A DNA stretch of 64,000 nucleotides, from assembly GCA_025463985.1 (NCBI GenBank), contig JAODBM010000192.1, forward strand, positions 2,201 through 66,200, read 5' to 3'. The translations under genes were made by a program, and so were the position numbers. Position 1 is the first letter of the stretch. Every line of letters begins with the position of its first letter. Below are positions 4,964-60,738 of this stretch, piece by piece. Under the pieces are notes generated by a model, which made no database searches, was not told the DNA's origin, and saw nothing but the letters and a program-made list of their open reading frames with translations. The stretch comes from Acidimicrobiales bacterium (GTDB lineage Bacteria > Actinomycetota > Acidimicrobiia > Acidimicrobiales > Iamiaceae).

Positions 4964-5000
4964 CCGGCCGCCGCGTGGGCGCCGAGCGGGTCGGGCGACG

Positions 5001-6184: not shown

Positions 6185-6205
6185 GCCGGTCGACGAGGAG
6201 TGTGG

Positions 6206-7282: not shown

Positions 7283-7292
7283 CGGAGGCCTG

Positions 7293-8066: not shown

Positions 8067-8072
8067 CAGCCG

Positions 8073-8310
8073 CAACTGGGCGGGGATGCGGTCGCCCCGG
8101 CAACCGGGATGCCGCCCAGTTGCGGGGGTGCGGCCAACTGGGCGGGGATGCGGTCGCCCCGGCAACCGGGATGCCGCCCAGTTGCGGGGGGCGCGGCCAA
8201 CTGGGCGGGGATGCGGTCGCCCCGGCAACCGGGATGCCGCCCAGTTGCGGGGGGCGCGGCCAACTGGGCGGAGTCTCGGTCGCCCCGGCAACCGGGATGC
8301 CGCCCAGTTG
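8073..8310. repeat. Tandem array of four 62-63 bp units, each an imperfect ~50 bp palindrome (CAACTGGGCGG-N28-CCGCCCAGTTG)
   Basis: Units start at 8073, 8135, 8198 and 8261. Units 2 and 3 are identical, unit 1 differs in the linker, and unit 4 has 4 substitutions in the loop. The 11-bp arms are perfect in all four. The array fills the gap between two convergent genes. Confidence 0.95.
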
Positions 8311-8333
8311 CGGGTTGGTTGCGGGGGCGCGGG

Positions 8334-9779: not shown

Positions 9780-10494
9780 CGGCTCGATCCTCGGGGGTGT
9801 AGCTGTAGTGCTCGCCGCCGACGGAGATGAAGATCGCCTCCGCCTCGGCGCACAACGTGGTGCCGACGCGTGCCTCGCCGGCCACGTTGATCTTCCGGCC
9901 GTCGACCGAGACGAGGGCGCTGGTCAGCGCGACCTCCTGGTCGACCGGCACGCCGGCGCGGAAGCGGATCGTCAGCGTGCCGGTGACCACCATGAGGCCG
10001 GTCAGCGCGGCTTGGCGGCCGAGCACGTAGTCGAACGCCGAGGCGAGGAACCCGCCCTGGATCACGCCGGGCGCGCCCTCGTACGCGTTGCTGAACGTGC
10101 ACGTGGCGCGGATGGAGTCGGCGCCCTCGTCGATGACCAGGGGAGCGGCCAGCCCGCTCGACGCGCCGACGATCGGATGGCCCTCCCAGACGTCGGGCTG
10201 GTCGCCGCTGATCGTGCGCATGCCGCCGCTGCGGTGGTGGCGACTGGCGACGGCGAACGGCGCGAGTCGATCGGCGGCCGCCTCGATGTCTGCGACCGCA
10301 CCGTCGAGCTCGGCCACCGGCGGATCGGCGAACGCCACGATCGGGATGAGCGTGCGGATCGCCGCCGCGGCGCGCCGGCGGGCGGCGACCATGCGTGCTG
10401 CAACGTCCCCCGCATCGGCCACTCGGGCGACGGTACCAGGGCCCGCGCGGCCCCGATCGCTGGCCACTTCCAGCGGCTCCGGCGGATCAGTCAT
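9769..10494 (-). CDS. Hotdog-fold (PaaI-type) thioesterase with an Ala-rich N-terminal extension
   Basis: 241-aa ORF whose C-terminal half carries GAPGVIQGGFLASAFDYVLG. It overlaps the downstream ligase gene by 11 nt. Confidence 0.65.
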   Translation of the reverse strand: MTDPPEPLEVASDRGRAGPGTVARVADAGDVAARMVAARRRAAAAIRTLIPIVAFADPPVAELDGAVADIEAAADRLAPFAVASRHHRSGGMRTISGDQPDVWEGHPIVGASSGLAAPLVIDEGADSIRATCTFSNAYEGAPGVIQGGFLASAFDYVLGRQAALTGLMVVTGTLTIRFRAGVPVDQEVALTSALVSVDGRKINVAGEARVGTTLCAEAEAIFISVGGEHYSYTPEDRADDR

Positions 10495-10523
10495 CTCATT
10501 ATGCTATTCCGCGGGCTGATCGT

Positions 10524-10552
10524 TTGACAGTCGTCTAATTCGCTTATACATT
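10524..10552 (+). promoter_or_regulatory. Putative promoter: -35 TTGACA, 17-nt spacer containing GTCTAAT, -10 TACATT
   Basis: TTGACA is at 10524-10529 and TACATT at 10547-10552. It sits in the divergent gap between the thioesterase (-) and the fused ACAD (+). Confidence 0.55.
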
Positions 10553-10600
10553 CAGCCTTCCGGATCGCAGACCTGCGGCCTGGACGGGGGAGGGACGCGC

Positions 10601-12784
10601 ATGGGGATTCCTGTCTCGGACGATCACGCCGCGCTGGCGCAGGTCGCACGGACGTTCCTGACGAAGCAGGAGAGCCTGACCGCGGCGCGCCACGCCTTGG
10701 ACGGCGAGGACGCCAGGCCCGGGTTCTGGAAGGACATGGCCGCGCTCGGGTGGTTGGGTCTCCACGTCCCCGAGAGCCACGGCGGGTCCGGCTACGGGCT
10801 CCTCGAGCTGAGCATCGTCGTGGAGGAGCTGGGCCGGCAGTGCACGCCGGGGCCGTTCCTCACGACCGCGGTCGTCTCTGGCGCGATCGCGGCCGTCGGC
10901 GGCGACGCGCTGCGGGCCGAGCTGCTGCCCGGTCTGGCCAACGGCGAGCTCGTCGCCGGACTCGGCGTCGGCGGCACCCTGAAGCTCGACGACACCGGCG
11001 TGCTCGACGGTGCGGTCGGCGCGGTGATGGCCGCGGCCGGCGCGGACCTGCTGGCGCTCGTCGTCGGCGACGACCTCGTCCTCGTCGACCCGACCGCGGC
11101 CGGCGTCACGATCTCGGACCGGCAGAACCTCGACCCCACGCAGCCGTGCGCCGCGGTCCGTCTCGAGCAGGTCACCGTCCCTGCGCAGCGCATCGTCCGC
11201 GGCGGCGCTCGACCTGCCCGCCTGCTGCTCGACGTGCTCGCGGCCGCCGAAGCCGCGGGGGGTGCGGCGGCCTGCCAGGAGATGGGCACGGAGTACGCGA
11301 AGGAGCGCACGGCCTTCGGCCGGCCCATCGGACAGTTCCAGGCCATCAAGCACCACTGCGCCAACATGTTCGTGGACGAGCAGCTGTCGGTGGCGGCCGT
11401 CTGGGACGCAGCACGCGCCGCCGACCTCGCCGACGTGTCGCCGCTCTCGGCTCGGGCCGCGGCGGCCATCGCTCTCCCGGCGTTCCTGCGGGCTGCGAAG
11501 ACCAACGTGCAGGTGCACGGCGGCATCGGCTTCACCTGGGAGCACGACGCCCACCTCCACCTGCGCCGCGCGGCCGCGCTCAACGCGTTCGTCGGGCCGG
11601 TCGACGCCATCAGCGCCGACGTGGCGCGGCTCGCCGACGAGCAGCCCGGCCGGCGGTCGACGCTCGACCTGCCGCCCGAGGCCGATCAGTACGTGGCCGA
11701 GGCCGAGGAGTTCGTGGCCCGCTACGGCGAGCTGCCCGAGGCCGAGCGCCATCGGTTCGTCGTGGAGAGCGGCTACCTCTACCCGTCGTGGCCGAAGCCG
11801 TATGGCCGAGGAGCCGGGCCGCTGGAGCAGCTCGTGCTCGACGAGGCCCTGGGCGACCTTCCGCTCCACGAACCACTGGGCGACCCGGCCTGGACGCTCC
11901 CCATCATCCTCCCGACGATCATGGTGCACGGCACCGACGACCAGAAGCAGCGCTGGATCCGTCCGACGATGGACGCCGACATGAAGTGGTGCCAGCTCTT
12001 CAGCGAGCCCGGCGCCGGCAGCGACCTGGCCAACCTGTCGACCAGGGCCGAGCGCGGCGACGGCGGCTGGATCGTCACCGGCCAGAAGGTCTGGACCAGC
12101 AGCGGCCACCAGGCGGCGCGCGGCTTCGCCTTGGTGCGGACCGACCCGGACGCCGCCAAGCACCGCGGCATCACCGCCATGGTCGTCGACATGAAGGCCA
12201 AGGGCGTGACCGTGGTGCCGCTCAAGCAGATCACCGGCGAGCAGCACTTCAACGAGGTGTTCCTCGACGAGGTGTGGGTGCCCGACGAGGACGTCGTGGG
12301 TGACGTCAACGACGGCTGGACCGTCGCCCTCACGACGCTCAGCCACGAGCGCGTGTCGCTCGGCGAGGCGGAGGCCACCCAGGGCGAACCTTGGGCCACC
12401 ATCCGGCCGCTGGCGACGAGCGAGTCGGCCACGATCGAGGTCGGCGACATCGTGGCCACCGGCATCGCCGCCCGGGCCGTCAACCTGCGCATCGCCGCCC
12501 GAGCCGTCGTCGGCGCCCCTGCCGGCGTCGAGGGCAACGTCACCAAGCTCATCGGCACGGGGCACACGCAGCGCATCGCCGAGTTCGGCGTGCGCCTCCT
12601 GCAAGACCAGGCCGTCTACACCGATGGTCCGGGCGAGCCCGTGACCTACCAGTTCTTGTTGTCCCGGGCCTCGACCATCGCTGGTGGGACGTCGGAGATC
12701 CTCCGCAACGTCATCGCCGAGCGCGTGCTCGGTCTGCCCCGGGACCCCAAGCCGCTCGAGACCGCACCGAAAGGCCGTTCATGA
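10601..12784 (+). CDS. Fused double acyl-CoA dehydrogenase: N-terminal beta-like ACAD half plus C-terminal alpha-like ACAD half
   Basis: 727-aa ORF. The first half has ERTAFGRPIGQFQAIKHHCANM and GGIGFTWEHDAHLHLRR but no SEPxxGSD. The second half has LFSEPGAGSDLANL, GQKVWTSSG and TIAGGTSEILRNVIAERVLGLPRD. Confidence 0.9.
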   Translation: MGIPVSDDHAALAQVARTFLTKQESLTAARHALDGEDARPGFWKDMAALGWLGLHVPESHGGSGYGLLELSIVVEELGRQCTPGPFLTTAVVSGAIAAVGGDALRAELLPGLANGELVAGLGVGGTLKLDDTGVLDGAVGAVMAAAGADLLALVVGDDLVLVDPTAAGVTISDRQNLDPTQPCAAVRLEQVTVPAQRIVRGGARPARLLLDVLAAAEAAGGAAACQEMGTEYAKERTAFGRPIGQFQAIKHHCANMFVDEQLSVAAVWDAARAADLADVSPLSARAAAAIALPAFLRAAKTNVQVHGGIGFTWEHDAHLHLRRAAALNAFVGPVDAISADVARLADEQPGRRSTLDLPPEADQYVAEAEEFVARYGELPEAERHRFVVESGYLYPSWPKPYGRGAGPLEQLVLDEALGDLPLHEPLGDPAWTLPIILPTIMVHGTDDQKQRWIRPTMDADMKWCQLFSEPGAGSDLANLSTRAERGDGGWIVTGQKVWTSSGHQAARGFALVRTDPDAAKHRGITAMVVDMKAKGVTVVPLKQITGEQHFNEVFLDEVWVPDEDVVGDVNDGWTVALTTLSHERVSLGEAEATQGEPWATIRPLATSESATIEVGDIVATGIAARAVNLRIAARAVVGAPAGVEGNVTKLIGTGHTQRIAEFGVRLLQDQAVYTDGPGEPVTYQFLLSRASTIAGGTSEILRNVIAERVLGLPRDPKPLETAPKGRS

Positions 12785-20992: not shown

Positions 20993-21643
20993 ATGACCTT
21001 CGACCTCGAGCAAACCGACCGCTTGCTGCAGACCACCCGGGCCGTGCGCAAGCGCCTCGACCTCGACCGCCCCGTGGAGCGGTCCGTCGTGCTCGACTGC
21101 TTGCGGCTCGCGATCCAGGCCCCGTCGGGCGGCAACAGCCAGCCCTGGCGCTGGATCGTCATCGACGACCAGCCCACGAAGGACGCGCTGGCGGGCCTCT
21201 ACCGGGAGGCGTACGCGCCGTACATCGCGTCGCGCAAGGCAGAGCTCGCGGCCCAGGGCGGCAACGCCGATCACCCGATCGCCCAGTCGTCCGACTACCT
21301 GGCCGAGCACCTCGAGGAGGTGCCCGTGATGGTGATCCCGTGCCTGCTGGGCCGGGTCACCGCCGACGACTCGCCCGGCCACGTCGCCGGCTTCTTCGGC
21401 TCGGTGATGCCGGCGGTGTGGAGCTTCATGCTCGCCCTGCGCAGCCGCGGCCTCGGCTCCGCGTTCACGACGCTGCACCTCGAGCGCGAGAAGGAGGCGG
21501 CCGCGCTGCTCGGTGTGCCCGACACCGTCACGCAGCTGGCACTGCTGCCCGTCGCGTACACCAAGGGCGACGACTTCCGGCCGGCCGACCGCAAGCCGGT
21601 CGAGGACGTGACGTACTGGAACGGGTGGCGGCAGCGCGGCTAA
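20993..21643 (+). CDS. Nitroreductase-family protein
   Basis: 216-aa ORF with AGGAG upstream. The motif RAVRKRLDLDRPV...APSGGNSQPWRW is typical of the nitroreductase fold. Confidence 0.8.
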   Translation: MTFDLEQTDRLLQTTRAVRKRLDLDRPVERSVVLDCLRLAIQAPSGGNSQPWRWIVIDDQPTKDALAGLYREAYAPYIASRKAELAAQGGNADHPIAQSSDYLAEHLEEVPVMVIPCLLGRVTADDSPGHVAGFFGSVMPAVWSFMLALRSRGLGSAFTTLHLEREKEAAALLGVPDTVTQLALLPVAYTKGDDFRPADRKPVEDVTYWNGWRQRG

Positions 21644-21683
21644 TGCGTTAAACTATTCAGCAGTTCCCAAGGGGGAGGCCCAG

Positions 21684-22934
21684 GTGACGAAGCCGATGGA
21701 GGGCGTGCGCGTCCTCGAGGTGGCGATGTTCGGCTTCGTGCCGAGCGCCGCTGCGATCCTGTCCGATTGGGGGGCCGACGTCATCAAGGTCGAGCACCCC
21801 GACGGCGGCGACCCGGTGCGCCGGCTGTCGGCGTGGGGCGTGGAGCCCGGCGCGGGTGGGCTGACGTACCTCTGGGAGGTGTTCAACCGCGGCAAGCGGA
21901 GCGTCACGATCGACATCCGCAACCCCGAGGGGCGTGACGTCCTGCTGGACCTGGTCGACCAGGCTGACGTGTTCCTCACGAACTTCCTGCCGCCGGCCCG
22001 CCGCAAGCTCGGCATCGACGCCGACGAGATCATGGCCCGCAACCCGCGGATCGTCTACGCCCGCGGCAGTGCCCACGGACCGCTCGGCCCCGACGCCGAG
22101 AAGGGCGGCTTCGACGGGCTCACGTACTGGGCCGGCGCCGGGCCGAGCATGGCCGCCCGCCCGGCCGGCGTCGACGAGCCGATCCCGATGCCGGGGCCGG
22201 CGTTCGGCGACATCCAGGCCGGCTCGCAGCTGGCCGGCGCGATCGGCGTCGCGCTGTTCAACCGCGAGCGCACCGGTGCGGGCTGCGTGGTCGACCACTC
22301 GTTGCTGGCCTCGGGGCTCTGGGCGATGCAGGCGACGATGGCCGGCACCCACACCTCGGGCCTGACCGAGCTGCCCGCGCAGGACCGCATGGGTCCCGTC
22401 AGCCCGCTCGGCAACTGGTACCGCACGTCCGACGCCCGCTGGGTGTTCCTCGGCTTCAACGAGCCCGACCGCTCGTGGCCGCGGTTCTGCGAGCTCGTCG
22501 GGCGGCCGGAGCTCACCTCGGACGGCCGCTTCGGCACGGAGGCGGCCCGCGCCGCCAACATGAAGGCCTCGATCGAGCTGCTCGACGAGATCGTCGCCGA
22601 GCACACCCTCGCCGAGTGGCAGGGCATCCTGGGCGCCCAGGAGGGTCCGTGGGCGGTGCTGCGCACGCCGCGCGAGCTGCTCGACGACGAGCAGGCCATC
22701 GCCAACGGCTTCATCCAGACGGTCGACTACGACAGCGGCGCCACGTTGAAGCTCGTGTCGGCCCCCGGCCAGTTCGACGGCACGGTGCCGACGCTCGTCC
22801 CCGCCCCCGGCCACGGCGCCGACACCGACACCGTGCTGGCCGAGCACGGGTTGACCGTCGCGCAGATCGGAGCGCTCCGCGACGGCGGTGCGATCGGATC
22901 CAGCCCGTCGACCCCGGCTGTCGAGCCTGCGTGA
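21684..22934 (+). CDS. Family III CoA-transferase (CaiB/BaiF/alpha-methylacyl-CoA racemase family)
   Basis: GTG start after AAGGGGGAG. Motifs are MTKPMEGVRVLEV, DWGADVIKVEHP and FNRGKRSVTIDI. Confidence 0.9.
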   Translation: MTKPMEGVRVLEVAMFGFVPSAAAILSDWGADVIKVEHPDGGDPVRRLSAWGVEPGAGGLTYLWEVFNRGKRSVTIDIRNPEGRDVLLDLVDQADVFLTNFLPPARRKLGIDADEIMARNPRIVYARGSAHGPLGPDAEKGGFDGLTYWAGAGPSMAARPAGVDEPIPMPGPAFGDIQAGSQLAGAIGVALFNRERTGAGCVVDHSLLASGLWAMQATMAGTHTSGLTELPAQDRMGPVSPLGNWYRTSDARWVFLGFNEPDRSWPRFCELVGRPELTSDGRFGTEAARAANMKASIELLDEIVAEHTLAEWQGILGAQEGPWAVLRTPRELLDDEQAIANGFIQTVDYDSGATLKLVSAPGQFDGTVPTLVPAPGHGADTDTVLAEHGLTVAQIGALRDGGAIGSSPSTPAVEPA

Positions 22935-24529
22935 CGGCGCCGCCCAACCCCGCTCCGTGGGCCACGATCGGTGCGCTCGTCGAGGATGCCATCGCGCGGT
23001 TCCCCGACCTCGAGGCGGTGGTCGAGGGCGGTGAGCGGTGGACCTTTCGCTCGCTCGGCGACCGCATCCACGAGGCCGCCCGCGCCCTGATCGCGAGCGG
23101 CGTCGCGCCGGGCGATCGGGTGTCGGTGTGGGCGCCGAACATCCGCGAGTGGGTGGTCATCTCGCTTGCGATCCACAGCGTCGGTGCCGTCCTCGTGCCG
23201 ATCAACACGCGGTTCAAGGGCGGCGAGGCGGCGTACGTCCTGCGCAAGGCGAAGGTCCGCCGCGTCTTCACCGTGACCGACTTCCTCGACGTCGACTACG
23301 TCGAGGTGCTGCGCTCCGAGGCGGACCTCGAGCTCGACGAGATCGTGGTCCTGCGCGGCCCGTCCCACCCCGGCGCGACGTCGTGGGAGGACTTCGTGCG
23401 CCGCGGTGCCGACGTCGACGACGCCGAGCGCACCGCCCGCGTGGCCGCGGTTAGCGGCGAGGACCCGTGCCACATCCTCTTCACCTCGGGCACCACCGGT
23501 GCGCCGAAGGGCGCGGTGCTCGGGCACGCGGCCGTGTGCACCGCGTACTCCGTCTACGCCGACAACGTCGGCCTGCGCACCGGCGATCGCTACCTGATCG
23601 TGCTGCCGTTCTTCCACTCGTTCGGGTTGAACGCCGGGATCCTCGTCTGCCTCATGGCCGGCGCCACGATCGTGGCCGAGCCCGTGTTCGACGTGGAGTC
23701 GGTGCTGGAGCGCATCGTGGAGGAGCGGATCACCGCGTTCCCCGGCGCGCCGACCGTCTACCAGACCCTGCTCGCGGCCCCGGCCGCGACGCGGGAGAAG
23801 CTGACCACGCTCCGGCTGGCCGTCGTGTCCTCGGCCGCCATCCCGGTCGAGATGATCCGCCAGATGAGCAGCGTGCTGAAGATCGACACGATCATCACCG
23901 GCTACGGGCTCACCGAGGCGTCCGGCATCGTCGCGATGTGCCGTCACGGCGACGACCCCGAGGTGATCGCCCAGACGGCTGGCCGCACCGTCGAGGGCAT
24001 GACGATCCGCATCGCCGACGAGGCGGGCAACGAGCTGCCGGCCGAGGTGGCCGGTGAGGTCCTCGTGCGCGGCTACACGGTGATGCAGGGCTACTTCGAC
24101 GACCCCGAGCAGACCGCGCAGACGATCGACGCCGAGGGCTGGCTGCACACCGGCGACATCGGGATGATCCGCGCCGACGGCAACCTCGTGATCACCGACC
24201 GGATGAAGGACATGTACATCGTGGGCGGGTTCAATACGTATCCCGCCGAGATCGAGAACGTGATGTCGACCCACCCGGCCATCGCCGCCGTGGCCGTGGT
24301 CGGCGTGCCCGACGAGCGCCTGGGCGAGGTCGGCTCGGCCTTTGTGATCCCGGCGAGCGGCGTCGCCGCCGACCCCGACGAGATCATGGCCTGGTGCCGA
24401 GGTCGCATGGCCAACTACAAGGTGCCCCGGCACGTCCACGTGGTCGAGGACTTCCCGCTCAACGCCACCGGGAAGGTGCTCAAGTTCAAGCTCCGGGTGC
24501 AGGCCCGCGACATGCTCGCCCCGAGCTGA
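22931..24529 (+). CDS. AMP-dependent acyl-CoA synthetase/ligase
   Basis: GTG 22931 overlaps the upstream stop (GTGA) inside ORF 22475..24529. Motifs are LFTSGTTGAPKG, TGDIGMIRADGNLVITDRMKDMYIVGGFNTYP and GKVLKF. Confidence 0.9.
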   Translation: MTAPPNPAPWATIGALVEDAIARFPDLEAVVEGGERWTFRSLGDRIHEAARALIASGVAPGDRVSVWAPNIREWVVISLAIHSVGAVLVPINTRFKGGEAAYVLRKAKVRRVFTVTDFLDVDYVEVLRSEADLELDEIVVLRGPSHPGATSWEDFVRRGADVDDAERTARVAAVSGEDPCHILFTSGTTGAPKGAVLGHAAVCTAYSVYADNVGLRTGDRYLIVLPFFHSFGLNAGILVCLMAGATIVAEPVFDVESVLERIVEERITAFPGAPTVYQTLLAAPAATREKLTTLRLAVVSSAAIPVEMIRQMSSVLKIDTIITGYGLTEASGIVAMCRHGDDPEVIAQTAGRTVEGMTIRIADEAGNELPAEVAGEVLVRGYTVMQGYFDDPEQTAQTIDAEGWLHTGDIGMIRADGNLVITDRMKDMYIVGGFNTYPAEIENVMSTHPAIAAVAVVGVPDERLGEVGSAFVIPASGVAADPDEIMAWCRGRMANYKVPRHVHVVEDFPLNATGKVLKFKLRVQARDMLAPS

Positions 24530-24592: not shown

Positions 24593-26098
24593 TCAGGCGC
24601 TGTGGGAGAGCTTGGCTTCGAGCTCGCTCTTGAGCACCCGGCGCAGGAGCTTGCCGGTCTCGCTGTAGGGCAGCTCGGTGCAGAACGTGATCTGGTCGGG
24701 CGTCCGCGACGAGCGGAGCTGCTCGCGCACCCACGCCTTGAGCTCGTCCTCCGTCGCGGTCTCGTCCTCGTCGAGCACGACGGCGGCGGCGACGGCCTCA
24801 CCCCACTCGCGGTCGGCGACGCCGAACACGGCGGCCTCGCGGACGGCCGGGTGGGTGAGGAGCACGTCCTCGATCTCGCCCGGCGACAAGTTCTCGGCGC
24901 CGCGCACGATGACGTCGTCGAGGCGGCCGTCGATGAACAGGTAGCCGGCGGCGTCGAGCCAGCCGCCGTCGTTGGTGTGGAACCAGCCGTCCGACGGCGC
25001 CTGCTCGCGGCCGACGTACTCGCCCGACACCTGCTCGCCGCGCACGCAGATCTCGCCCTTCTCGCCGGGACCGACGGGCGTGCCCTCGGGGTCGCAGATC
25101 GTGAGCTCGATGGTCGGCAGCGGCCGGCCGACCGAGCCGAGCCGGGCCCGCACCGTCGGGTCGTCGCTGGCGAAGGCCTCGCGGTGGTCGTCGGGCGTGA
25201 GCACGGCGATCGTCGACGCCGTCTCGGTGAGCCCGTAGGCGTTGACGAGGTTCACCTGGGGGAGCAGCGTCATCGCCCGCTCGACCACGGCCATCGGCAT
25301 GCGCCCGCCGCCGTAGGACAGGTGGCGCAGCGCCGGCAGCGCGTTCTCGCCGCTCTCCAGCTCGTCGAGGATCCGGTCCAGCATGGTGGGCACGACCATC
25401 GCGTGGGTGATCGCTTCCTGGCGGGCCAGCTCGACCCAGTTCTTCGGGGAGAACTGCGGGACGTAGACCAGCCGGCGCCCGCCGAACAGCGACGACAGCA
25501 CGGCCGAGATCGCGGCGATGTGGTACGGCGGCACGCTGACGAGAGCGGCCTCGTCGGCGTCGGAGCCCAGGAACTCGACGGTGTCGAAGATGTAGGACGT
25601 GAGGTGGCGGTGCCGGAGCACGGCCGCCTTCGGCTCGCCGGTCGTGCCGCTCGTGAACAGCAGCACCGCGATGTCGTCGGCGTCGGCGGGGATCGCATCC
25701 TCGGTGGTCGCTCCGCTGGTGACCTGCGCGAAGTCGCTCGCCAGCACCACCTCGATCCCCTCGGTCCCGGCGACGCGGTCGACCGCGCTCTCGTGGACGA
25801 CGGCGATGCCGGGCGCGCTGCGGGCCAGGATCGCTCGAAGGCGGTCGTCGGCCAGCCGGTAGTTGAGCGGGACGTAGGGGATGCCCGCGAACGCCGCGGC
25901 GAAGAGGTAGATCGGGATGGCCTCGGAGTTGACGTCGACGGCGATGAGGCGCTCGGCGCCCCGCTCACGAAGCCACGCCCCGGCCTCGGTGGCCCGGGCC
26001 AGCAGTTCCGACATCGTCAGGCCGCCGCTCAGCGACCCGACCGCGGCGCGGTCGGGCGCGCCGTCGGCGGCCATCTCCAAGAGCATCGCGATCGACAT
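24593..26098 (-). CDS. AMP-dependent acyl-CoA synthetase/ligase
   Basis: 501-aa ORF with motifs LFTSGTTGEPKA, NDGGWLDAAGYLFIDGRLDDVIVRGAENLSP and GKLLRR. Confidence 0.9.
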   Translation of the reverse strand: MSIAMLLEMAADGAPDRAAVGSLSGGLTMSELLARATEAGAWLRERGAERLIAVDVNSEAIPIYLFAAAFAGIPYVPLNYRLADDRLRAILARSAPGIAVVHESAVDRVAGTEGIEVVLASDFAQVTSGATTEDAIPADADDIAVLLFTSGTTGEPKAAVLRHRHLTSYIFDTVEFLGSDADEAALVSVPPYHIAAISAVLSSLFGGRRLVYVPQFSPKNWVELARQEAITHAMVVPTMLDRILDELESGENALPALRHLSYGGGRMPMAVVERAMTLLPQVNLVNAYGLTETASTIAVLTPDDHREAFASDDPTVRARLGSVGRPLPTIELTICDPEGTPVGPGEKGEICVRGEQVSGEYVGREQAPSDGWFHTNDGGWLDAAGYLFIDGRLDDVIVRGAENLSPGEIEDVLLTHPAVREAAVFGVADREWGEAVAAAVVLDEDETATEDELKAWVREQLRSSRTPDQITFCTELPYSETGKLLRRVLKSELEAKLSHSA

Positions 26099-26104
26099 GG
26101 GCGG

Positions 26105-26413
26105 TCAGTCCGACGCGGGCAGCGGCTTTGCGCCCTTGAGCTCGAGCGCCTCGCCGCCGACGGCGAGCGTGCCGGTGCCGCCCTTGACGGCGAGGACCTC
26201 GAGGTTCGACGCCTCGTGGACGAACCGCTTGCCCAGGGCCGTGCCGCCCGACCAGTCGGCTGCGATCGTGACGCCGGCGGGCGGCTCGTCGCCCTGCGGC
26301 ACCATCGCCGCGCCGCCGCACTCGAGCTGCACGGGTTGGGCCGGCGGCCGGACGACCACGACCTCGACCTCGTCGACGGCGCTGCGCCAGCGTGACCCAG
26401 CTTTGAGTTCCAC
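26105..26413 (-). CDS. Small hypothetical protein (102 aa) with an internal two-fold repeat, co-transcribed with the ligase
   Basis: GTG start, and the stop is 6 nt before the ligase start. The repeat halves are EVEVVVVRPPAQPVQLECGGAAM and LEVLAVKGGTGTLAVGGEAL. GC3-rich codon use supports coding. Confidence 0.55.
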   Translation of the reverse strand: MELKAGSRWRSAVDEVEVVVVRPPAQPVQLECGGAAMVPQGDEPPAGVTIAADWSGGTALGKRFVHEASNLEVLAVKGGTGTLAVGGEALELKGAKPLPASD

Positions 26414-26510
26414 GACCTACCCCCTCGTGAAGCGAAGCGACATACGGTACCATCCGGCCCGTAAATCGCCAACTAGTTAAGTTATTCAGACCGACCCAAG
26501 GGAGCCCTGT

Positions 26511-27287
26511 GTGGAGACCGATGAGATCCCGAGTCCGGCTGAGCTGTTCGACCTTACTGGCAAGGTAGCCCTCGTCACGGGGGGGAGCCGGGGCCTCGGC
26601 CGGCAGATGGCGTTGGGCTTCGCGAAGGCGGGCGCCGACATCGTGGTCACGAGCCGCAAGATCGAGGCCTGTCGTGAGGTGGTGGAGGAGATCGAGGCCT
26701 CCACCGGCAGGCAGGCCATGGCCTACGGCTGCCACGTCGGCCATTGGGACGAGCTGTCAGGCCTGGTCGATGCGGCCTACGAGCGGTTCGGTCACGTCGA
26801 CGTGCTGGTCAACAACGCCGGCAAGTCGGTGCTCTACGAGTCGCTCGAGAGCGTGACCAAGGAGCTGTGGGAGAGCACGATCGCGGTGAACATGACCGGG
26901 CCGTTCCGGCTCTGCGCCCTCGTCGGCTCGCGGATGGTGGAGCACGGCGGCGGCTCGATCATCAACGTGAGCACGATCGGATCGATCCGGCCGAGCCCGC
27001 ACATCGTCCCCTACGCCGCGGCGAAGGCGGGGCTCAACGCGATGACGATCGGCTTCGCCCATGCCTTCGGGCCCACGGTGCGCGTCAACTGCCTCATGCC
27101 CGGCCCGTTCTTCACCGACGTCAGCGCGGCCTGGGACCTCGAGGCGTTCGGCGAGGCGGCGCAGGCCCACGCGCTGCGCCGGGGCGGGCAGCCCCGCGAG
27201 GTCATCGGCACCGCCCTGTACCTCGCGAGCGATGCGTCGAGCTTCACCACCGGAGCCACCGTGCGCGTCGACGGGGGGATCCCCTGA
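26511..27287 (+). CDS. Short-chain dehydrogenase/reductase (SDR)
   Basis: GTG start after AAGGGAG. Motifs are VTGGSRGLGRQ, NNAG and YAAAKAG. Confidence 0.9.
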   Translation: METDEIPSPAELFDLTGKVALVTGGSRGLGRQMALGFAKAGADIVVTSRKIEACREVVEEIEASTGRQAMAYGCHVGHWDELSGLVDAAYERFGHVDVLVNNAGKSVLYESLESVTKELWESTIAVNMTGPFRLCALVGSRMVEHGGGSIINVSTIGSIRPSPHIVPYAAAKAGLNAMTIGFAHAFGPTVRVNCLMPGPFFTDVSAAWDLEAFGEAAQAHALRRGGQPREVIGTALYLASDASSFTTGATVRVDGGIP

Positions 27288-28336
27288 TGGGCGTCGCTGG
27301 TGTCGACGAGGTGCCGCAGCCGGTGGTCGACCTGGTCGCCCTGCAGCTGTGGATGGACGGTCAGGGCGTCGGGTCCGGGCCGATCAGCGACGCCGAGCTG
27401 TTGGCCGGTGGCACGCAGAACATCCTCCTGCGCTTCCACCGCGGCGGCGACGTCTACGTGCTGCGGCGACCGCCCATCAACAAGCGCGGCAACAGCGACG
27501 AGACGATGCGGCGCGAAGCCCGCGTCCTCGCCGTGCTGGCAGACACGGACGTGCCGCACGCGCGGCTGATCGCGGCCTGTCCCGACGTCGACGTGATCGG
27601 GGCCGCGTTCTACCTGATGGAGTCGGTCGACGGCTTCAACCCGACCGTTGACCGGCCCGAGCCGTTCGGGTCCGACCACTCGATGCAGCACGCGATCGGC
27701 CTGGCCATGGCCGACGCGATCGCCGGCCTCGGGCGCGTCGACCACGTCGCCACCGGGCTCACCGATCTGGGGCGGGGGGCGGGCTGGCTGGAGCGCCAGG
27801 TCGCCCGCTGGCGGTCGCAGCTCGAGTCGTACGCCGAGCTCGATGGCTACGCGGGACCGGAGCTGCCGGGGGTCGACGCCGTCGCCGCCTGGCTGGAGGC
27901 GCATCAGCCCACGGCGTGGACGCCCGGGCTCATCCACGGCGACTTCCACCTGGCGAACGTCCTCGTGCGCCCCGATCCGCTGGCGCTCGCGGCGGTGGTC
28001 GACTGGGAGCTGACGACGATCGCCGACCCACTGCTGGACCTGGGGCACCTCCTGGCCACGTGGCCGGGTTCGAGCCCGGAGTCAGCTGCCGCGGTCGACC
28101 TGCCCGGCCTGCCGACGCGGGCTGAGCTCATCGAGCGCTACGCGGCCGGGTCGACCCGCGACATGACCCACGTCGACTGGTACCAGGTGCTCGCCTGCTA
28201 TCGCCTCGGGATCATCCTCGAGGGTTCGAACGCTCGTGCCGACGCCGGGCTCACGCCGCGGGCCATCGGCGATCAGCTCCACGACGGTGCGATGTCGCTC
28301 TTCACGCAAGCCTGTGCGCTCGTCGGCGCGGCCTGA
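27287..28336 (+). CDS. APH-family phosphotransferase (kinase)
   Basis: ATG 27287 shares one nucleotide (A at 27287) with the SDR TGA stop (27285-27287), inside ORF 26744..28336. Motifs are LIHGDFHLANVLV and VVDWELTTIADPLLDLG. Confidence 0.85.
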   Translation: MGVAGVDEVPQPVVDLVALQLWMDGQGVGSGPISDAELLAGGTQNILLRFHRGGDVYVLRRPPINKRGNSDETMRREARVLAVLADTDVPHARLIAACPDVDVIGAAFYLMESVDGFNPTVDRPEPFGSDHSMQHAIGLAMADAIAGLGRVDHVATGLTDLGRGAGWLERQVARWRSQLESYAELDGYAGPELPGVDAVAAWLEAHQPTAWTPGLIHGDFHLANVLVRPDPLALAAVVDWELTTIADPLLDLGHLLATWPGSSPESAAAVDLPGLPTRAELIERYAAGSTRDMTHVDWYQVLACYRLGIILEGSNARADAGLTPRAIGDQLHDGAMSLFTQACALVGAA

Positions 28337-28430
28337 ACCGCGGGGCGCTTGCAGCGGCTGCTGAATATAATTAGTCTAACTCTTTGGGCGCGACCCTCGG
28401 ACGCCCACGGGTTCAAGGGGAGGAACACAG

Positions 28431-29612
28431 ATGACGGATGTGCTCAACGACACCGGCCTGAAGGTGATCGACGTGGACACGCACGTCGTCGAGCCGTACG
28501 ACCTCTGGACGTCGCGCGTGTCGACGCAGAAGTACGGCGACAAGGTGCCCCACGTCGTGCGCAACGAGGACGGCGTCGACCAGTGGCATGCCGGCGACAT
28601 GATCCTCGGCCCCGCCGCGGGTGCCGCGGCCGCCGGCTGGAGCGAGGCGCCGCCGAACTTCGCGCCGCGCATCGAAGAGGTCGATCCCCGCATCTGGCAG
28701 CCCGAGGGCCGCCTGGAGCTGATGGACGAGTACGGGATCTGGGCCGAGGTGCTCTACCCGAACGTGGCCGGCTTCGGCGCCGGCAAGTACACCGACTTCG
28801 GCGACATGGACCTCGCGCTGCTCCTGCTGCAGGCCTACAACGACTTCCTCAGCGAGTTCGGCGCGGTGGCCCCCGATCGCTACGCGCCGATCATGGCCGT
28901 GCCGTTCTGGGACATCGACATCAGCCTCAAAGAGATGAAGCGCTGCGTCGAGAACGGCCACAAAGGGCTGATCTTCTCGCAGGCCCCCGAGACGTTCGGG
29001 TCGCCACGGCTGAGCGATCAGCACTGGGACCCACTGTGGGCCGCCGCCCAGGAGATGGGCCTGTCGATCAACTTCCACATCGGCAGCGGTGACCTGTCCG
29101 GCATGGAGCTGCTGGTGCCCGAGGCGGGCGCCGCGGCGAACTACGCCTCGTTCCCGGTCACGTTCTTCACCGGCAACTGCCGCACGATCGCCCAGCTGAT
29201 CGGCGGCGGCGTGTGCCACCGGTTCCCGGACCTCAAGTTCGTGTCCGTGGAGAGCGGCGTCGGCTGGGTGCCGTTCGCGCTCGACGCCCTCGACTGGATG
29301 TGGGGCGAGTGCAACGTGCCGGCCGAGCACCCCGAGTACGACCTGCTGCCGAGCGAGTACTTCAAGCGGCAGATCTACGCCTGCTTCTGGTTCGAGCAGG
29401 GTCCCAGCCTGGAGCTGGCCATCGAGCGGCTCGGGGCCGACAACGTCCTCTACGAGACCGACTTCCCGCACCCGACCAGCATGTCGCCCGGGCCCGCCAG
29501 CGCCGGCGGCATGAAGGCCAAGGACTTCATCAGCGAGCGGCTCTCCAACCTCAAGCCCGAAGTCCTGCAGAAGGTGCTGCACGACAACGCCGCCCAGCTC
29601 TACGGCCTCTAG
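28431..29612 (+). CDS. Amidohydrolase-2 family protein (ACMSD/LigW-type metal-dependent hydrolase or decarboxylase)
   Basis: 393-aa ORF with motifs VIDVDTHVVEP and LYETDFPHPTS. It is a paralogue of 59543..60721, roughly 70 percent identical by eye. Confidence 0.85.
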   Translation: MTDVLNDTGLKVIDVDTHVVEPYDLWTSRVSTQKYGDKVPHVVRNEDGVDQWHAGDMILGPAAGAAAAGWSEAPPNFAPRIEEVDPRIWQPEGRLELMDEYGIWAEVLYPNVAGFGAGKYTDFGDMDLALLLLQAYNDFLSEFGAVAPDRYAPIMAVPFWDIDISLKEMKRCVENGHKGLIFSQAPETFGSPRLSDQHWDPLWAAAQEMGLSINFHIGSGDLSGMELLVPEAGAAANYASFPVTFFTGNCRTIAQLIGGGVCHRFPDLKFVSVESGVGWVPFALDALDWMWGECNVPAEHPEYDLLPSEYFKRQIYACFWFEQGPSLELAIERLGADNVLYETDFPHPTSMSPGPASAGGMKAKDFISERLSNLKPEVLQKVLHDNAAQLYGL

Positions 29613-29624
29613 ATCGGACTGAAC

Positions 29625-30920
29625 ATGTGGGGATTCGAGACTGAGCCGGAGTTCCAAGAGAAGCTGGACTGGATCAATGGGTTCGTCCGGGAGGAGGTCG
29701 AGCCCCTCGACCTCGTCCTGGGCGATCCGTACGACAAGGCCGACCAGGTCGCGATGTCGGTCGTCCGGCCGCTACGCCAGCAGGTGAAGGACCAGGGCCT
29801 GTGGGCCGCCCACCTCGGCCCCGAGCTCGGCGGCCAGGGCTACGGCCAGGTGAAGCTGGCGCTGATGAACGAGATCGTCGGCCGGTCCCGGTGGGCGCCC
29901 TCGATCTTCGGGTCCCAGCCGCCCGACTCGGGCAACGCCGAGATCCTGGCGCACTACGGCACCGAGGACCAGAAGGCCAAGTACCTCCAGCCGCTCCTCG
30001 ATGGCGAGATCACCTCGTGCTACTCGATGACCGAGCCGCACGCGGGTGCCGACCCCACGCTGTTCACGACCCAAGCGGTGCAGGACGGCGACGAGTGGGT
30101 GATCACCGGCGAGAAGTGGTTCTCCTCGGCGGCCCGCTACGCGAGCTTCCTCATCGTGATGGTGGTGACCAACCCCGACGTGAGCGCGTACAACGGGATG
30201 AGCATGTTCATCGTCCCGGCCGACACGCCCGGCGTGAACATCGTGCGCAACGTCGGGCTCGGCGGTGAGCCCGAGGGCGAGGGCATGCACGCCTACATCC
30301 GCTACGAGGGCGTGCGGGTGCCGGCCGACCACCTGCTCGGCGGCGAGGGCAACGCGTTCGTCATCGCGCAGACCCGCCTCGGCGGTGGCCGGATCCACCA
30401 CGCCATGCGCACCATCGCCATGGCCCGCCATGCGCTGGACATGATGTGCGAGCGGGCGCTCTCGCGGCAGACCCGCAACGGGCCGCTCGCGAGCCTCGGC
30501 GTCGTGCAGGACCAGCTGGCCGACAGCTGGATCGAGATCGAGCAGTTCCGCCTGCTCGTGCTCCGGTCGGCATGGCTGATCGACAAGCACAACGACTACA
30601 AGCGGGTGCGCAAGGACATCGCCGCGGTGAAGGTGGCGATGCCGAAGGTCCTGCACGACGTCGTGCAGCGGGCCATGCACCTCCACGGCGCGCTCGGCGT
30701 GAGCGACGAGATGCCGTTCTTCCACATGCTGATCGGGGCCGAGGCCCTCGCGCTCGCCGACGGTCCCACCGAGGTCCACAAGATCACGGTGGCGCGCGAG
30801 CTGCTCAAGGAGCACAGCCCGGTCGAGACGCTGTTCCCGAGCGGTCACCTCCCGACGCGGCGCGCCGCCGCCCAGTCGAAGCTGGCCGCCGCGCTCGAGC
30901 TGGCGATCGCCGAGACCTGA
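29625..30920 (+). CDS. Acyl-CoA dehydrogenase (ACAD10/11 / FadE2-like type)
   Basis: 431-aa ORF with motifs SMTEPHAGADP, GEKWFSSAA and LADGPTEVHKITVAREL. Confidence 0.9.
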   Translation: MWGFETEPEFQEKLDWINGFVREEVEPLDLVLGDPYDKADQVAMSVVRPLRQQVKDQGLWAAHLGPELGGQGYGQVKLALMNEIVGRSRWAPSIFGSQPPDSGNAEILAHYGTEDQKAKYLQPLLDGEITSCYSMTEPHAGADPTLFTTQAVQDGDEWVITGEKWFSSAARYASFLIVMVVTNPDVSAYNGMSMFIVPADTPGVNIVRNVGLGGEPEGEGMHAYIRYEGVRVPADHLLGGEGNAFVIAQTRLGGGRIHHAMRTIAMARHALDMMCERALSRQTRNGPLASLGVVQDQLADSWIEIEQFRLLVLRSAWLIDKHNDYKRVRKDIAAVKVAMPKVLHDVVQRAMHLHGALGVSDEMPFFHMLIGAEALALADGPTEVHKITVARELLKEHSPVETLFPSGHLPTRRAAAQSKLAAALELAIAET

Positions 30921-40082: not shown

Positions 40083-40194
40083 TCGCTCCCCCTTCGAGCA
40101 CCGGCCGCTCAGTACCGGTCAATTAGACAGATAGATTAGACTATTGTGTGATCGTAGCGGACGGGCGACCCTTCGGCTAGAGGCAGGGGATCTC

Positions 40195-60721: not shown

Positions 60722-60738
60722 CGGGCAAGGATCGCAGG

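Follow-up and report, generated by a model that had tools for sequence, protein, structure and literature searches.

The window analyzed here is a 64-kb stretch of DNA with a G+C content of 72%, in which reading frames were called by GC3 analysis; 56 of its genes (55 called by GC3 and the APH kinase gene) were scanned against Pfam. The locus of interest is organized around a divergent intergenic region of 97 nt (26414–26510). On its minus-strand side lie the genes of a 102-residue protein (26105–26413; GC3 0.92), which has no Pfam match, and of an AMP-binding ligase of 501 residues (24593–26098; PF00501, 7e-70; PF13193). The plus strand carries a co-directional array encoding a classical SDR (26511–27287, 258 residues; PF13561, 2e-52; PF00106), an APH-fold kinase (27287–28336, 349 residues; PF01636, 8e-35), an Amidohydro_2 protein (28431–29612, 393 residues; PF04909, 1e-31), an ACAD (29625–30920, 431 residues), which matches all three Pfam ACAD domains, and a P450 (PF00067) that ends at position 32206 and whose start is uncertain (TTG at 30953 or GTG at 30968). 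Both genes flanking the divergent region are preceded by plausible ribosome-binding sites. The GC3 frames coincide with those of a preliminary description of the locus; all seven genes are present at its coordinates and fall into its classes, and the divergent gap is confirmed as well. The one-base overlap of the SDR stop and kinase start codons that it had noted is also present (CCCC-TGATG-GGC, with the A at 27287); the SDR gene is translationally coupled to the kinase gene.

Two AT-rich elements were observed between the genes. The first, TTAAGTTATTCAG (26477–26489), is located 22 nt before the SDR start, and its 13-mer pattern recurs 24 nt before the start of a CoA-transferase gene at 21648 (2 matches, 0.01 expected). 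The second, the near-palindrome AATTAGTCTAACT (28369–28381), lies in the 94-nt gap between the kinase and Amidohydro_2 genes (28337–28430); related ATTAGAC elements occur at 10531 and 40121–40143 (5 matches, 0.16 expected). It may act as an operator or as an internal promoter in front of the Amidohydro_2 gene. Its position in this gap suggests that kinase and ACAD may occupy separate transcription units.

The window is a dense lipid-catabolic island with at least six AMP-ligases, seven ACAD genes, at least five SDRs, three APH kinases and two P450s. Since it is so rich in these families, a ligase, SDR or P450 beside any window gene is expected by chance, and only the pairing of a kinase with an ACAD of the ACAD10/11 type, together with neighborhoods that recur in other genomes, is informative. 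A second kinase/ACAD pair of this type is also found in the window. The surroundings of the P450 gene comprise genes for a ChsH2-type OB-fold protein, a thiolase, a MaoC protein, a FadD3-family ligase and heteromeric-type ACADs. We read the 64-kb island as one for breaking down branched, alicyclic or steroid-like acids in the form of CoA thioesters.

The kinase and the ACAD

The best PDB matches of the kinase are 3dxp (4.5e-38), 9o56 (1.3e-36) and the kinase domain of mouse ACAD11 (2.7e-30; 30% identity), after which the following match drops to 39 bits. Residue roles in kinases of this type have been defined (PMC12440821, PMC13596139). Residues D219/N224, D239-W-E, R170 and R76-E77 align with catalytic and CoA-contacting residues of ACAD11; the catalytic Asp/Asn pair, the DWE metal site, the Arg beside the αC Glu and the CoA-contacting Arg (R176 in ACAD11) are all kept. 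By its sequence and signature residues the protein is a small-molecule kinase of the ACAD10/11 kinase-domain type, in agreement with its earlier assignment to the ACAD10/11 and LvaA kind. Its subfamily, with the motif HGD[YF]H, carries a His at the HxDxK position, where characterized relatives have Lys or Arg; 3dxp has an Arg. In the enzyme from C. thermarum this Lys is essential (PMC13596139).

According to a recent preprint, the kinase domain of ACAD10 acts as a lipid-alcohol kinase, and so do several of its prokaryotic homologues (PMC13596139). The prokaryotic enzymes phosphorylate 1-O-alkylglycerols, chimyl alcohol among the substrates, some of them only with acetyl-CoA, and 9o56, the second-best PDB match of the window kinase, shows the motif (HYDYK) that was reported for the enzyme from C. 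thermarum (PMC13596139). Many orthologues of the window kinase are, moreover, solitary, with no ACAD nearby. That the window enzyme is such a kinase, e.g. for 1-O-alkylglycerols or monoacylglycerols, and that the ACAD has an independent role nevertheless seems highly improbable to us, given the coupling of the kinase to the SDR, the phosphate-site-bearing ACAD encoded two genes downstream and the retained CoA-contacting Arg; ether-lipid genes were not seen in the window.

The ACAD matches 4hr3 with 269 bits and mouse ACAD11 with 253 bits, compared with 140 bits for the best ordinary ACAD, so that its description as ACAD10/11-like holds. Residues R251/H259/R262 and D379 correspond to R626/H634/R637 and D753 of ACAD11, i.e. 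the diagnostic Arg/His/Arg helix is retained, and so is the Asp found in place of the usual catalytic Glu. In other loci this signature is present in all kinase-linked ACADs examined; ACADs without such a link lack the Arg/His/Arg residues and show Glu-Gly at the catalytic position. Sequence identity is 38% to the ACAD11 domain (50–52% for ACAD11-type bacterial enzymes) and 36–38% to the ACAD11-type group, which includes 4hr3. Sequence comparison places the window ACAD far closer to the ACAD11/LvaC-type clade than to ordinary ACADs, and outside that clade, as its sister. The relationship to LvaA/LvaC and ACAD10/11 that had been put forward is borne out in part: the ACAD keeps the signature and lies near the clade, but only as a sister group, and in the kinase subfamily one residue on which a characterized relative depends is exchanged.

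Conservation of the gene neighborhood

Kinase and ACAD orthologues are adjacent in further loci (L003/L007, L008, L017, L064 and L134), and the closest relative (L131) keeps the order APH–Amidohydro_2–ACAD–P450 at 80–92% identity. The proposed clustering of the two genes is therefore a feature of relatives as well. In L103, L108–110 and L116/126 a kinase of another clade (32% identity) and an ACAD of another clade (37%, signature kept) flank Amidohydro_2 (54%) and SDR (54%) genes. An ACAD10/11-type gene lies within 10 kb of the kinase orthologue in only 13 of 55 well-flanked loci, and for two of the four ACAD orthologues examined there is no kinase gene in the vicinity.

The SDR has no similarity more specific than classical SDR, and its PDB matches are generic. 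Its orthologues (53–62% identity) neighbor APH and/or ACAD10/11-type genes in L002, L006, L017, L027, L064, L095/96, L103, L108–110, L116/126 and L134. The SDR gene is directly adjacent in L002, L006, L017, L027 and L134 and is found 5.5 kb upstream in L064. Its recurrence beside such kinase/ACAD pairs in a number of lineages is consistent with a reductase function like that of LvaD.

A different picture emerged for the ligase, which the preliminary description had counted among the members of the module, and for the 102-residue protein, for which it had considered an analogy to LvaB. The ligase gene starts 6 nt after the stop codon of the small ORF. In NCBIfam the ligase gives only generic long-chain-fatty-acid–CoA ligase matches below cut-off, and its orthologues (50–60% identity) always follow a homologue of the small protein. 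The latter has 77 homologues with invariant ECGG, GKR and C-terminal KPLP[AS]SD motifs; its AlphaFold model (pLDDT 94) is all-beta and has no fold match in the PDB (best E-value 1.7). In five out of five other contexts, from five other genomes, the homologue is encoded 3–15 nt before an AMP-ligase gene, and kinase genes are missing from the vicinity; none of the 84 loci retrieved with the kinase or its homologues contains the protein. We rejected the LvaB analogy on the basis of this context. Ligase and 102-residue partner form a separate, conserved two-gene module outside the kinase machinery, occurring on its own elsewhere; it may activate the acid.

This independence is one of the points which would suit a generic salvage function: kinase and ACAD, perhaps with the SDR, might be a 4-hydroxy-acid salvage pair parked in a lipid island, handling ordinary 4-hydroxy or 4-oxo fatty acids (e.g. 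from γ-lactones or lipid oxidation), with the ligase, small protein, Amidohydro_2 protein and P450 belonging to unrelated pathways and adjacent by chance. The saturation of the window with ligases, SDRs, ACADs and P450s, the lack of any such neighbors around most kinase orthologues and the possible separate promoter or operator before the Amidohydro_2 gene point in the same direction. We still regard this explanation as unlikely, as the four-family association recurs across distant lineages and in differing gene orders.

The Amidohydro_2 protein and the P450

The closest solved relatives of the Amidohydro_2 protein are PtmU3 (1.9e-34) and DitZ (4.5e-32), with decarboxylases at 1e-13 or weaker. 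PtmU3 and DitZ are amidohydrolase-related dinuclear oxygenases (AROs; PMC10811679, PMC13154177, PMC7782822), and a hydrolase function, as implied by the initial label, was not supported. The conserved residues are D16-T-H18, H216, E275 and D344-F-P-H347, and all members of the subfamily have a Thr (Thr349) at the last position of the motif. The acidic residue linked to a two-metal site is thereby missing, and the subfamily may not be dinuclear. A filter based on the published D-x-P-H-x-[D/E] motif would miss it. A paralogue is encoded in the window at 59543–60721.

The P450 is closest among solved structures to CYP125MRCA (6.7e-98), CYP268A2, CYP124A1 and CYP142, with E-values of 6.7e-98 to 1e-58 for the CYP125/CYP124/CYP142 matches. 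CYP125, CYP124, CYP142 and CYP268 are oxidases that act on the terminal methyl (omega) position of methyl-branched lipids and of steroid side chains, not on the gamma position; the first three are mycobacterial enzymes, with C26 as the steroid target. The suggested gamma-hydroxylation by the P450 finds no backing in these relatives. The roles of both proteins in the array are presumptive.

A PtmU3/DitZ-like oxygenase, possibly together with the P450, could in principle create the substrate of the kinase. The whole array would then be one dedicated pathway: the ligase makes a bulky acyl-CoA of the terpenoid or steroid type, a hydroxyl is put on it, the SDR sets the configuration or oxidation state of this hydroxyl, and kinase and ACAD remove it as phosphate. 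PtmU3 does accept CoA-ligated substrates (PMC7782822), the association of the four families is seen again with other clades of kinase and ACAD, canonical dinuclear oxygenases of the superfamily adjoin kinase orthologues (L059, L081, L006, L002), and the ligase/small-protein module lies near Amidohydro_2 homologues also in L098 and L130. Hydroxylation at C4 followed by elimination, however, would yield the same 2-enoyl-CoA as an ordinary ACAD at the extra expense of O2, NAD(P)H and ATP. In the subfamily, Thr stands at the position that is Asp or Glu in every characterized dinuclear member, and AibH1, which lacks that acidic residue, is a mono-zinc, non-catalytic subunit (PMC7782822). Pfam matches to ferredoxin or ferredoxin-reductase families were found for 0 of the 56 window genes scanned, and Rieske matches are absent among the scanned genes as well. 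We therefore consider such a route quite improbable.

Proposed pathway and comparison with known systems

With somewhat better than even confidence we read the region 26511–30920 as encoding the two-step chemistry of LvaA/LvaC and ACAD10/11 in a split, bacterial form. Family membership, signature residues and recurrent synteny are direct observations; the substrates given below are inferred. The SDR would reduce a 4-oxoacyl-CoA, most likely as an LvaD-like substrate supply; the reaction direction belongs to this inference. The kinase would then phosphorylate the 4-hydroxyl group of the resulting 4-hydroxyacyl-CoA, and the ACAD would eliminate phosphate from the 4-phosphoacyl-CoA in a redox-neutral, FAD-dependent reaction employing the Asp in place of the usual Glu and the Arg/His/Arg helix for phosphate binding. 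The product would be a 2-enoyl-CoA, which enters β-oxidation. Because the array sits in an island for branched, alicyclic or steroid-like acids, the natural substrate is probably a 4-oxo or 4-hydroxy intermediate of such a compound and not levulinate. Of the lva/ACAD10-11 reading proposed earlier, the kind of kinase and ACAD, their adjacency and the recurrent SDR stand; the roles considered for the small protein, P450, amidohydrolase and ligase find no support. Counting against a split module are the 38% ACAD identity and sister-clade position, the His at the HxDxK position, the 13 of 55 loci, the two ACAD orthologues away from kinases, the alkylglycerol phosphorylation by prokaryotic homologues of the kinase, the palindrome between the kinase and Amidohydro_2 genes and the generic SDR.

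The P450 resembles CYP125, CYP124 and CYP142, but neither a KstR-type regulon nor canonical steroid ring-opening genes were seen here. The Amidohydro_2 protein shares with PtmU3, which works on CoA thioesters, and DitZ the N-terminal D-x-H, the HIG His, the ESG Glu and D-x-P-H; it differs in the invariant Thr that ends the last motif and in the absence of Rieske and ferredoxin matches noted above.

For the lvaABCDE operon of P. putida (Rand 2017) we rely on its descriptions in PMC6692424, PMC12440821 and PMC11342911. Both systems bring together a kinase, an SDR and an eliminase of the ACAD family in the vicinity of an acyl-CoA ligase, and they would share the sequence from 4-oxoacyl-CoA via 4-hydroxyacyl-CoA and 4-phosphoacyl-CoA to enoyl-CoA. 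The window kinase, in contrast, has no LvaB-type partner beside it, the small ORF going with the ligase, and no LvaR-type regulator is evident (no Pfam match to regulator families among the genes between 17.8 and 38 kb). The gene order is different, the window array additionally encodes an Amidohydro_2 protein and a CYP125-like P450, the host belongs to the Acidimicrobiales, and the surroundings suggest complex lipids or terpenoids as substrates instead of levulinate.

Mammalian ACAD10 and ACAD11 fuse an APH kinase and an atypical ACAD for 4-hydroxy acid catabolism (PMC12440821, PMC11342911). The window proteins belong to the same two families, with mouse ACAD11 among the best solved matches of both, and share the kinase Asp/Asn, DWE and CoA-contacting Arg as well as the Arg/His/Arg helix and Asp base of the ACAD. 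Here, however, kinase and ACAD are encoded separately, one further gene lies in between, and a HAD domain is absent; identities are 30% (kinase) and 38% (ACAD), the window ACAD falls into a sister clade, and His replaces Lys after the catalytic Asp of the kinase. Among solved structures the best matches are 3dxp for the kinase, apart from its Arg at the position of the His, and 4hr3 for the ACAD, although 4hr3, like the bacterial ACADs of the ACAD11 type, falls into one group with ACAD11 (about 50% identity) and the window enzyme does not (36–38%). By its description, the B. pseudomallei pair Q63VL0/Q63VL1 comes from the same families and is likewise bacterial and split, and this separately encoded kinase and ACAD can replace the ACAD10 domains in vitro (PMC11342911).

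Gene order and putative control elements

The window has a G+C content of 72%, and the true reading frames were picked by third-codon-position G+C (0.92–0.97). Together with the Pfam matches, these frames agree with the positions and classes of the seven genes named in the preliminary description. An AMP-binding ligase (24593–26098) and a 102-aa ORF (26105–26413) are encoded on the minus strand. The plus strand carries an SDR (26511–27287), an APH kinase (27287–28336, PF01636), an Amidohydro_2 protein (28431–29612, PF04909), an ACAD (29625–30920) and a P450 (30953/30968–32206, two start candidates). All of them except the 102-aa ORF have Pfam matches. The overlap of the SDR stop codon with the kinase start codon was confirmed as TGATG, and so was the divergent gap between the two gene groups, which spans 97 nt. 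From the SDR onward the intergenic distances on the plus strand are, in order, −1, 94, 12, about 47 and 130 nt.

An AT-rich element, TTAAnnTATTCAG followed by CCCAAGGG, occurs at 21648–21660 and 26477–26489, 22–24 nt ahead of the starts of a CoA-transferase III gene and the SDR gene (two matches versus 0.01 expected). This suggests that both genes share a promoter or a regulator. A near-palindrome, AATTAGTCTAACT, is located in the gap between the kinase and Amidohydro_2 genes (28369–28381). Related ATTAGAC repeats were observed at 40121–40143, before a divergent pair of luciferase-like monooxygenase and CoA-transferase genes, and at 10531–10540, before a fused ACAD; altogether the window contains five matches versus 0.16 expected. 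Elements of this type may represent an operator common to the surrounding island of lipid genes. A scan for consensus promoters and terminators was uninformative in this high-GC window.

Kinase and ACAD

The best PDB matches of the kinase are the kinases 3dxp (4.5e-38) and 9o56 (1.3e-36), followed by mouse ACAD11 with its kinase domain (2.7e-30); after these three the score falls to 39 bits. The protein has the APH fold and is 30% identical to the ACAD11 kinase domain, the level reported for LvaA, the kinase of the Pseudomonas putida levulinate (lva) operon, versus ACAD10/11 (PMC11342911). Residue roles were taken from published work on kinase domains of this kind (PMC12440821, PMC13596139). 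The segment H217-G-D219 with N224 aligns with the catalytic Asp and Asn of ACAD11 (D220/N225), and the metal site D239-W-E241 (DWE) is conserved. D219, N224 and D239 also align with D214, N219 and D234 of the C. thermarum kinase. The Arg beside the αC Glu is retained in R76-E77, and the motif VLR-R-P is conserved too (our count for the CoA-contacting ACAD11 residue 'R86' is two off the numbering of the paper). R170 (LERQV) is the counterpart of the CoA-contacting R176 of ACAD11.

The Lys of the HxDxK motif is missing. This position, two residues after the catalytic Asp, is occupied by His in the window kinase and about 80 orthologues (HGD[YF]HLANV), by Lys in ACAD11 and 9o56 and by Arg in 3dxp. 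In the C. thermarum kinase this Lys is essential (PMC13596139); its motif, HYDYK, is also borne by 9o56. The kinase class given previously is thus upheld as ACAD10/11-type by the PDB matches and by the catalytic and CoA-contacting residues, but the His in place of Lys departs from it. The exact sequence of the kinase is recorded as 'fadE36' in an Acidimicrobiales metagenome-assembled genome, and homologues are recorded as 'aminoglycoside phosphotransferase'. NCBIfam did not place the kinase, ACAD or Amidohydro_2 protein in any specific family. An alkylglycerol-type function was recently reported for the ACAD10-type kinase family (PMC13596139), and the window enzyme could be a kinase of that type. 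We consider this very improbable. The kinase and ACAD genes are one gene apart in the window and adjacent in five loci retrieved from other genomes and metagenomes by homology scans (L003, L008, L017, L064 and L134).

In the ACAD, the N-terminal, middle and C-terminal domains are all matched (PF02771, PF02770 and PF00441). Its PDB scores are 269 bits for the Mycobacterium abscessus ACAD 4hr3, 253 bits for mouse ACAD11 and 140 bits for the best ordinary ACAD. In ACAD11, the 4-phosphate is bound by R626, H634 and R637 of a single helix, and D753 is the catalytic residue. In the alignment these four residues correspond to R251, H259, R262 and D379 of the window ACAD. The helix reads R251-LGGGRIH-H259-AM-R262, and the Asp that replaces the canonical Glu is found in LAD379GPTEVH, aligned with LADGPDEVH of ACAD11. 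The kinase-unlinked ACAD of L017 has Glu-Gly at the catalytic position and lacks the Arg/His/Arg set, and other ACADs of the window (425, 1575, 2610 and 10601) have neither Asp nor Glu there.

A neighbour-joining tree was calculated from the window clade, ACAD11, 4hr3, kinase-linked bacterial ACADs and canonical ACADs. The window ACAD and its orthologues (63–92% identical among themselves) form a sister clade to the group of ACAD11, 4hr3 and the kinase-linked ACADs. Identity to ACAD11 is 50–52% within that group, 36–38% in the window clade (38% for the window ACAD itself) and 16–26% for canonical ACADs. The window ACAD shares 20–26% identity with canonical ACADs. Placement of kinase and ACAD far from the clades of ACAD10/11 and of LvaA and LvaC, the kinase and ACAD of lva, had been named beforehand as evidence against the lva-like reading. 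The answer of the tree is intermediate, because the ACAD falls outside the ACAD11/LvaC-type clade and yet is its nearest relative, with the signature kept. By its sequence, the ACAD would eliminate phosphate from a 4-phosphoacyl-CoA, giving a 2-enoyl-CoA.

Recurrence of the gene set and the Amidohydro_2 protein

A scan of species-representative genomes with the kinase yielded 80 loci with orthologues at 56–66% identity, in Acidimicrobiia, Mycobacteriales, Caulobacterales, Parvibaculum, Hyphomonas, Acidobacteria and Binatia. Linkage was counted at the 55 kinase loci flanked by 4 kb or more on either side. An ACAD10/11-type ACAD lies within 10 kb in 13 of them, and in five of these 13 it belongs to the window clade. 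All examined ACADs linked to kinase orthologues keep the Arg/His/Arg and Asp signature. SDR orthologues (59–62% identity) are immediate neighbours of the kinase in L002, L006, L017 and L027, and one is found about 5.5 kb upstream of it in L064. The closest relative, L131, has the order APH (80%), Amidohydro_2 (88%), ACAD (92%) and P450 (82%). L134 (JGI Ga0209810_1000253, 6962–11097) contains an ACAD of the window clade (80%), an APH (42%) and an SDR (55%); its ACAD sits between two APH kinases, one divergent and one downstream. Within 8 kb of two other ACAD orthologues, one of them from an isolate genome, there is no kinase. Since the linkage is found in some loci and missing in others, the kinase/ACAD/SDR triad is recurrent, not obligatory. 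Kinase and ACAD could be a generic salvage pair that happens to sit in a lipid island. The unlinked copies speak for this reading, the recurrence of the kinase, ACAD, SDR and Amidohydro_2 families together in other loci speaks against it, and we regard it as doubtful. The PDB and NCBIfam matches of the SDR are generic. Its gene is coupled to that of the kinase and conserved in synteny, and by analogy with LvaD, the SDR of lva, it would reduce a 4-oxoacyl-CoA.

The Amidohydro_2 protein had been described as an amidohydrolase. This label does not hold for its nearest solved relatives, which are PtmU3 (1.9e-34) and DitZ (4.5e-32), both oxygenases on the amidohydrolase fold; decarboxylases of this fold match at 1e-13 or weaker. 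Amidohydrolase-related dinuclear oxygenases are defined by two motifs, D-x-H near the N-terminus and D-x-P-H-x-[D/E] near the C-terminus (PMC13154177). The N-terminal motif is present as D16-T-H18, with a hydrophilic middle residue like that of PtmU3 and DitZ (PMC13154177), and H216, E275 and D344-F-P-H347 are found as well. The C-terminal motif deviates, since it reads D344-F-P-H347-P-T349, and 'DFPHPTS' is invariant across the subfamily. According to Hibi et al. the acidic residue is kept solely in binuclear members, and AibH1, a subunit without this residue, is non-catalytic and binds a single zinc (PMC7782822). Because of Thr349 in place of the acidic residue we refrain from classing the protein as an oxygenase. 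We also considered a γ-lactonase that would provide the 4-hydroxy acid for the kinase. No LigI-type lactonase appeared among the PDB matches, and this identity is further disfavoured by the D-x-H motif, which is reportedly absent from hydrolases and decarboxylases of the fold (PMC13154177). In those annotated records that were examined, homologues carry the label 'amidohydrolase family protein'; this label and the recorded names of the kinase ('fadE36', 'aminoglycoside phosphotransferase') are two tempting mis-annotations that the present assignments correct.

The window contains a paralogue of the protein that is 71% identical, has the same DFPHPT motif and is followed by a CoA-transferase III gene (59543–60721; 59543–61956 together); L089 holds both at 80% identity. 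Owing to this paralogue, the relatives in the 40 loci of a metagenome scan with the Amidohydro_2 protein are co-orthologues of both copies. L103, L108-110 and L116/126 have the order ACAD (37%), Amidohydro_2 (54%), SDR (54%) and APH (32%), and their ACADs keep the signature and are 51–52% identical to ACAD11. In L095/96 the Amidohydro_2 gene is flanked by a window-clade ACAD (62%), a P450 and an SDR (57%). A P450 directly follows it in L090, L094, L099, L100, L102 and L111, and a nitroreductase or CoA-transferase III precedes it in L089, L093 and L094; the window orthologues of the latter two are located at 20993–22934. In a plasmid search all homologues were at most 38% identical, with no kinases nearby. 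The association of kinase, ACAD, SDR and Amidohydro_2 is real at the family level and leaves the mechanism unfixed.

An oxygenase could start a pathway of the type 'hydroxylate, phosphorylate, eliminate'. Canonical dinuclear oxygenases of the amidohydrolase superfamily do occur near kinase orthologues in L059, L081, L006 and L002. Among the window genes scanned there was no Pfam match to Rieske, ferredoxin or ferredoxin-reductase proteins; a dedicated electron donor may be dispensable for PtmU3 and DitZ. We judge this pathway unlikely. Quite unlikely, in our estimate, is an undescribed strategy in which a hindered acyl-CoA of the terpenoid or steroid type receives a hydroxyl group that is then taken off as phosphate. 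Here the PtmU3/DitZ-related metalloenzyme, of an unrecognised 'DFPHPT' subfamily, would install the hydroxyl, or it would be left from ring or lactone opening. The SDR would then process it, the His-variant APH kinase would phosphorylate it and the sister-clade ACAD10/11-like enzyme would expel the phosphate. If true, this would tie ACAD10/11 chemistry to complex-lipid degradation in Actinomycetota and account for several diverged kinase/ACAD sets in one island.

Lipid island, proposed pathway and comparison with lva

The best PDB match of the P450 is an ancestral reconstruction of CYP125 (6.7e-98), followed by CYP268A2, CYP124A1 and CYP142. In branched lipids and steroid side chains, it is the terminal methyl groups that these enzymes oxidise. 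The CYP125/124/142-like affinity lends no support to a γ-hydroxylase, the function suggested for the P450 in the preliminary description.

Convergent with the ligase at 24593–26098, there is a ligase of the FadD3 family (22931–24529; NCBIfam equivalog, 673.6 versus a cut-off of 657 bits), a family of steroid HIP-CoA ligases. It lies downstream of a nitroreductase and a CoA-transferase III, types that neighbour the Amidohydro_2 family elsewhere. The window further contains fused ACADs and ACADs of the heteromeric type, enoyl-CoA hydratases, MaoC hydratases, an OB-fold protein of the ChsH2 type together with an SCP-x-type thiolase, three CoA-transferases III, several luciferase-like monooxygenases, a β-keto acid cleavage enzyme (BKACE), an ABC importer and a TetR regulator. 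An ORF of 311 aa (45353–46288, minus strand, GC3 0.97, no Pfam match) is found between an AMP-ligase and the β-keto acid cleavage enzyme. A second kinase/ACAD set (3779–8066) starts with an ACAD10/11-type ACAD (3779–4963; signature RLGPGRIFHCMR ... YDGPDEVH), which in the tree branches deeper than both other ACAD clades. It continues with an acetyl-CoA hydrolase/transferase-family gene (5001–6158), an APH kinase (probable start at about 6206, end at 7282), which shares 35% identity with the main kinase and 33% with the kinase domain of ACAD11, and an enoyl-CoA hydratase. More distant is the third APH-family kinase of the window (54400–55428), which has the motif HGDYRTGN and 27% identity to the ACAD11 kinase domain; it directly follows a luciferase-like monooxygenase (53270–54421) and precedes a PaaA/PaaC-like protein. 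A megaplasmid locus of Sphingobium sp. RAC03 (pBSY17_1, L130) shares with the window a CoA-transferase III, the small protein with its ligase, Amidohydro_2 (34%), DUF2889, a P450, a long (736-aa) ACAD and an ECH. As no APH or ACAD10/11-type gene is found in L130, the shared genes point to a catabolic set that is conserved yet uncharacterised and that gained the kinase module in the window.

On balance we favour, with somewhat better than even confidence, a split module of the ACAD10/11 or LvaAC type that would act on a 4-oxo/4-hydroxyacyl-CoA intermediate. The SDR would act first, followed by the kinase and the phosphate-eliminating ACAD, and the substrate would be formed as a complex branched or alicyclic acid is broken down. 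What the data show is the family membership, the signature residues and the synteny; the substrate, the direction of the SDR step and any part of the Amidohydro_2 protein, the P450 or the ligase are inferred. The lva/ACAD10-11 logic proposed earlier thus survives in the kinase and ACAD type and the SDR synteny, but not in the small protein, the P450, the amidohydrolase or the ligase as a module member. The steroid C/D-ring intermediates HIP and MOODA were considered as candidate 4-oxo substrates. To our knowledge, their known routes do not require phospho-elimination, and we therefore propose no substrate.

As far as we know, phospho-elimination of 4-hydroxy acids has so far been characterised for Pseudomonas (levulinate), one Burkholderia pair and mammalian ACAD10/11, and we know of essentially no natural bacterial substrate of this route. 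A full-text literature search found no paper on actinobacterial versions or on the link to Amidohydro_2. Abundant soil Acidimicrobiia hold diverged paralogous versions, with two complete kinase/ACAD sets plus one further kinase in 64 kb, inside an island of branched/steroid-like lipid catabolism and repeatedly tied to one SDR family and one Amidohydro_2 subfamily. They offer concrete enzymes and gene sets for finding the natural 4-oxo/4-hydroxy intermediates that bacteria process. For structure-function work on ACAD10/11 they provide natural variants, namely a kinase in which His replaces Lys and an eliminase from a sister clade.

About 77 proteins (95–105 aa; Acidimicrobiales, Nocardia and Sphingomonadaceae) make up the family of the 102-aa ORF; they have no Pfam match and share the invariant motifs ECGG, GKR and a C-terminal KPLP[AS]SD. 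In five of five other contexts (L085, L086, L087, L088 and L130) the homologue lies 3–15 nt upstream of an AMP-ligase that is 50–60% identical to the window ligase, and none of these loci contains an APH kinase. Conversely, of the 84 loci retrieved with the kinase or with homologues of it, none contains a homologue of the small protein. The AlphaFold model is all-beta (pLDDT 94); a PDB fold search with it gave no match (best E = 1.7) and hence no functional lead. The protein may be a partner of the adenylation enzyme in an MbtH-like manner; alternatively, it may serve as substrate or carrier and insert its C-terminal tail into the ligase.

LvaB, encoded next to the kinase, is described as a 12-kDa LvaA-binding protein and is missing already from the lva cluster of P. 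citronellolis (PMC6692424). By context (five of five ligase-coupled, none in 84 kinase loci) the 102-aa protein is a ligase partner and not an analogue of LvaB. The small kinase partner expected from lva is therefore not borne out, as the one small ORF is coupled to the ligase, not to the kinase. With respect to LvaE and LvaR, the ligase and the regulator of lva, a ligase is present but in a separate, conserved two-gene module, and no regulator family was matched by Pfam among the genes between 17.8 and 38 kb. LvaD is compared with the window SDR by role, the matches of the latter being generic, and in the window the SDR gene is translationally coupled to that of the kinase.
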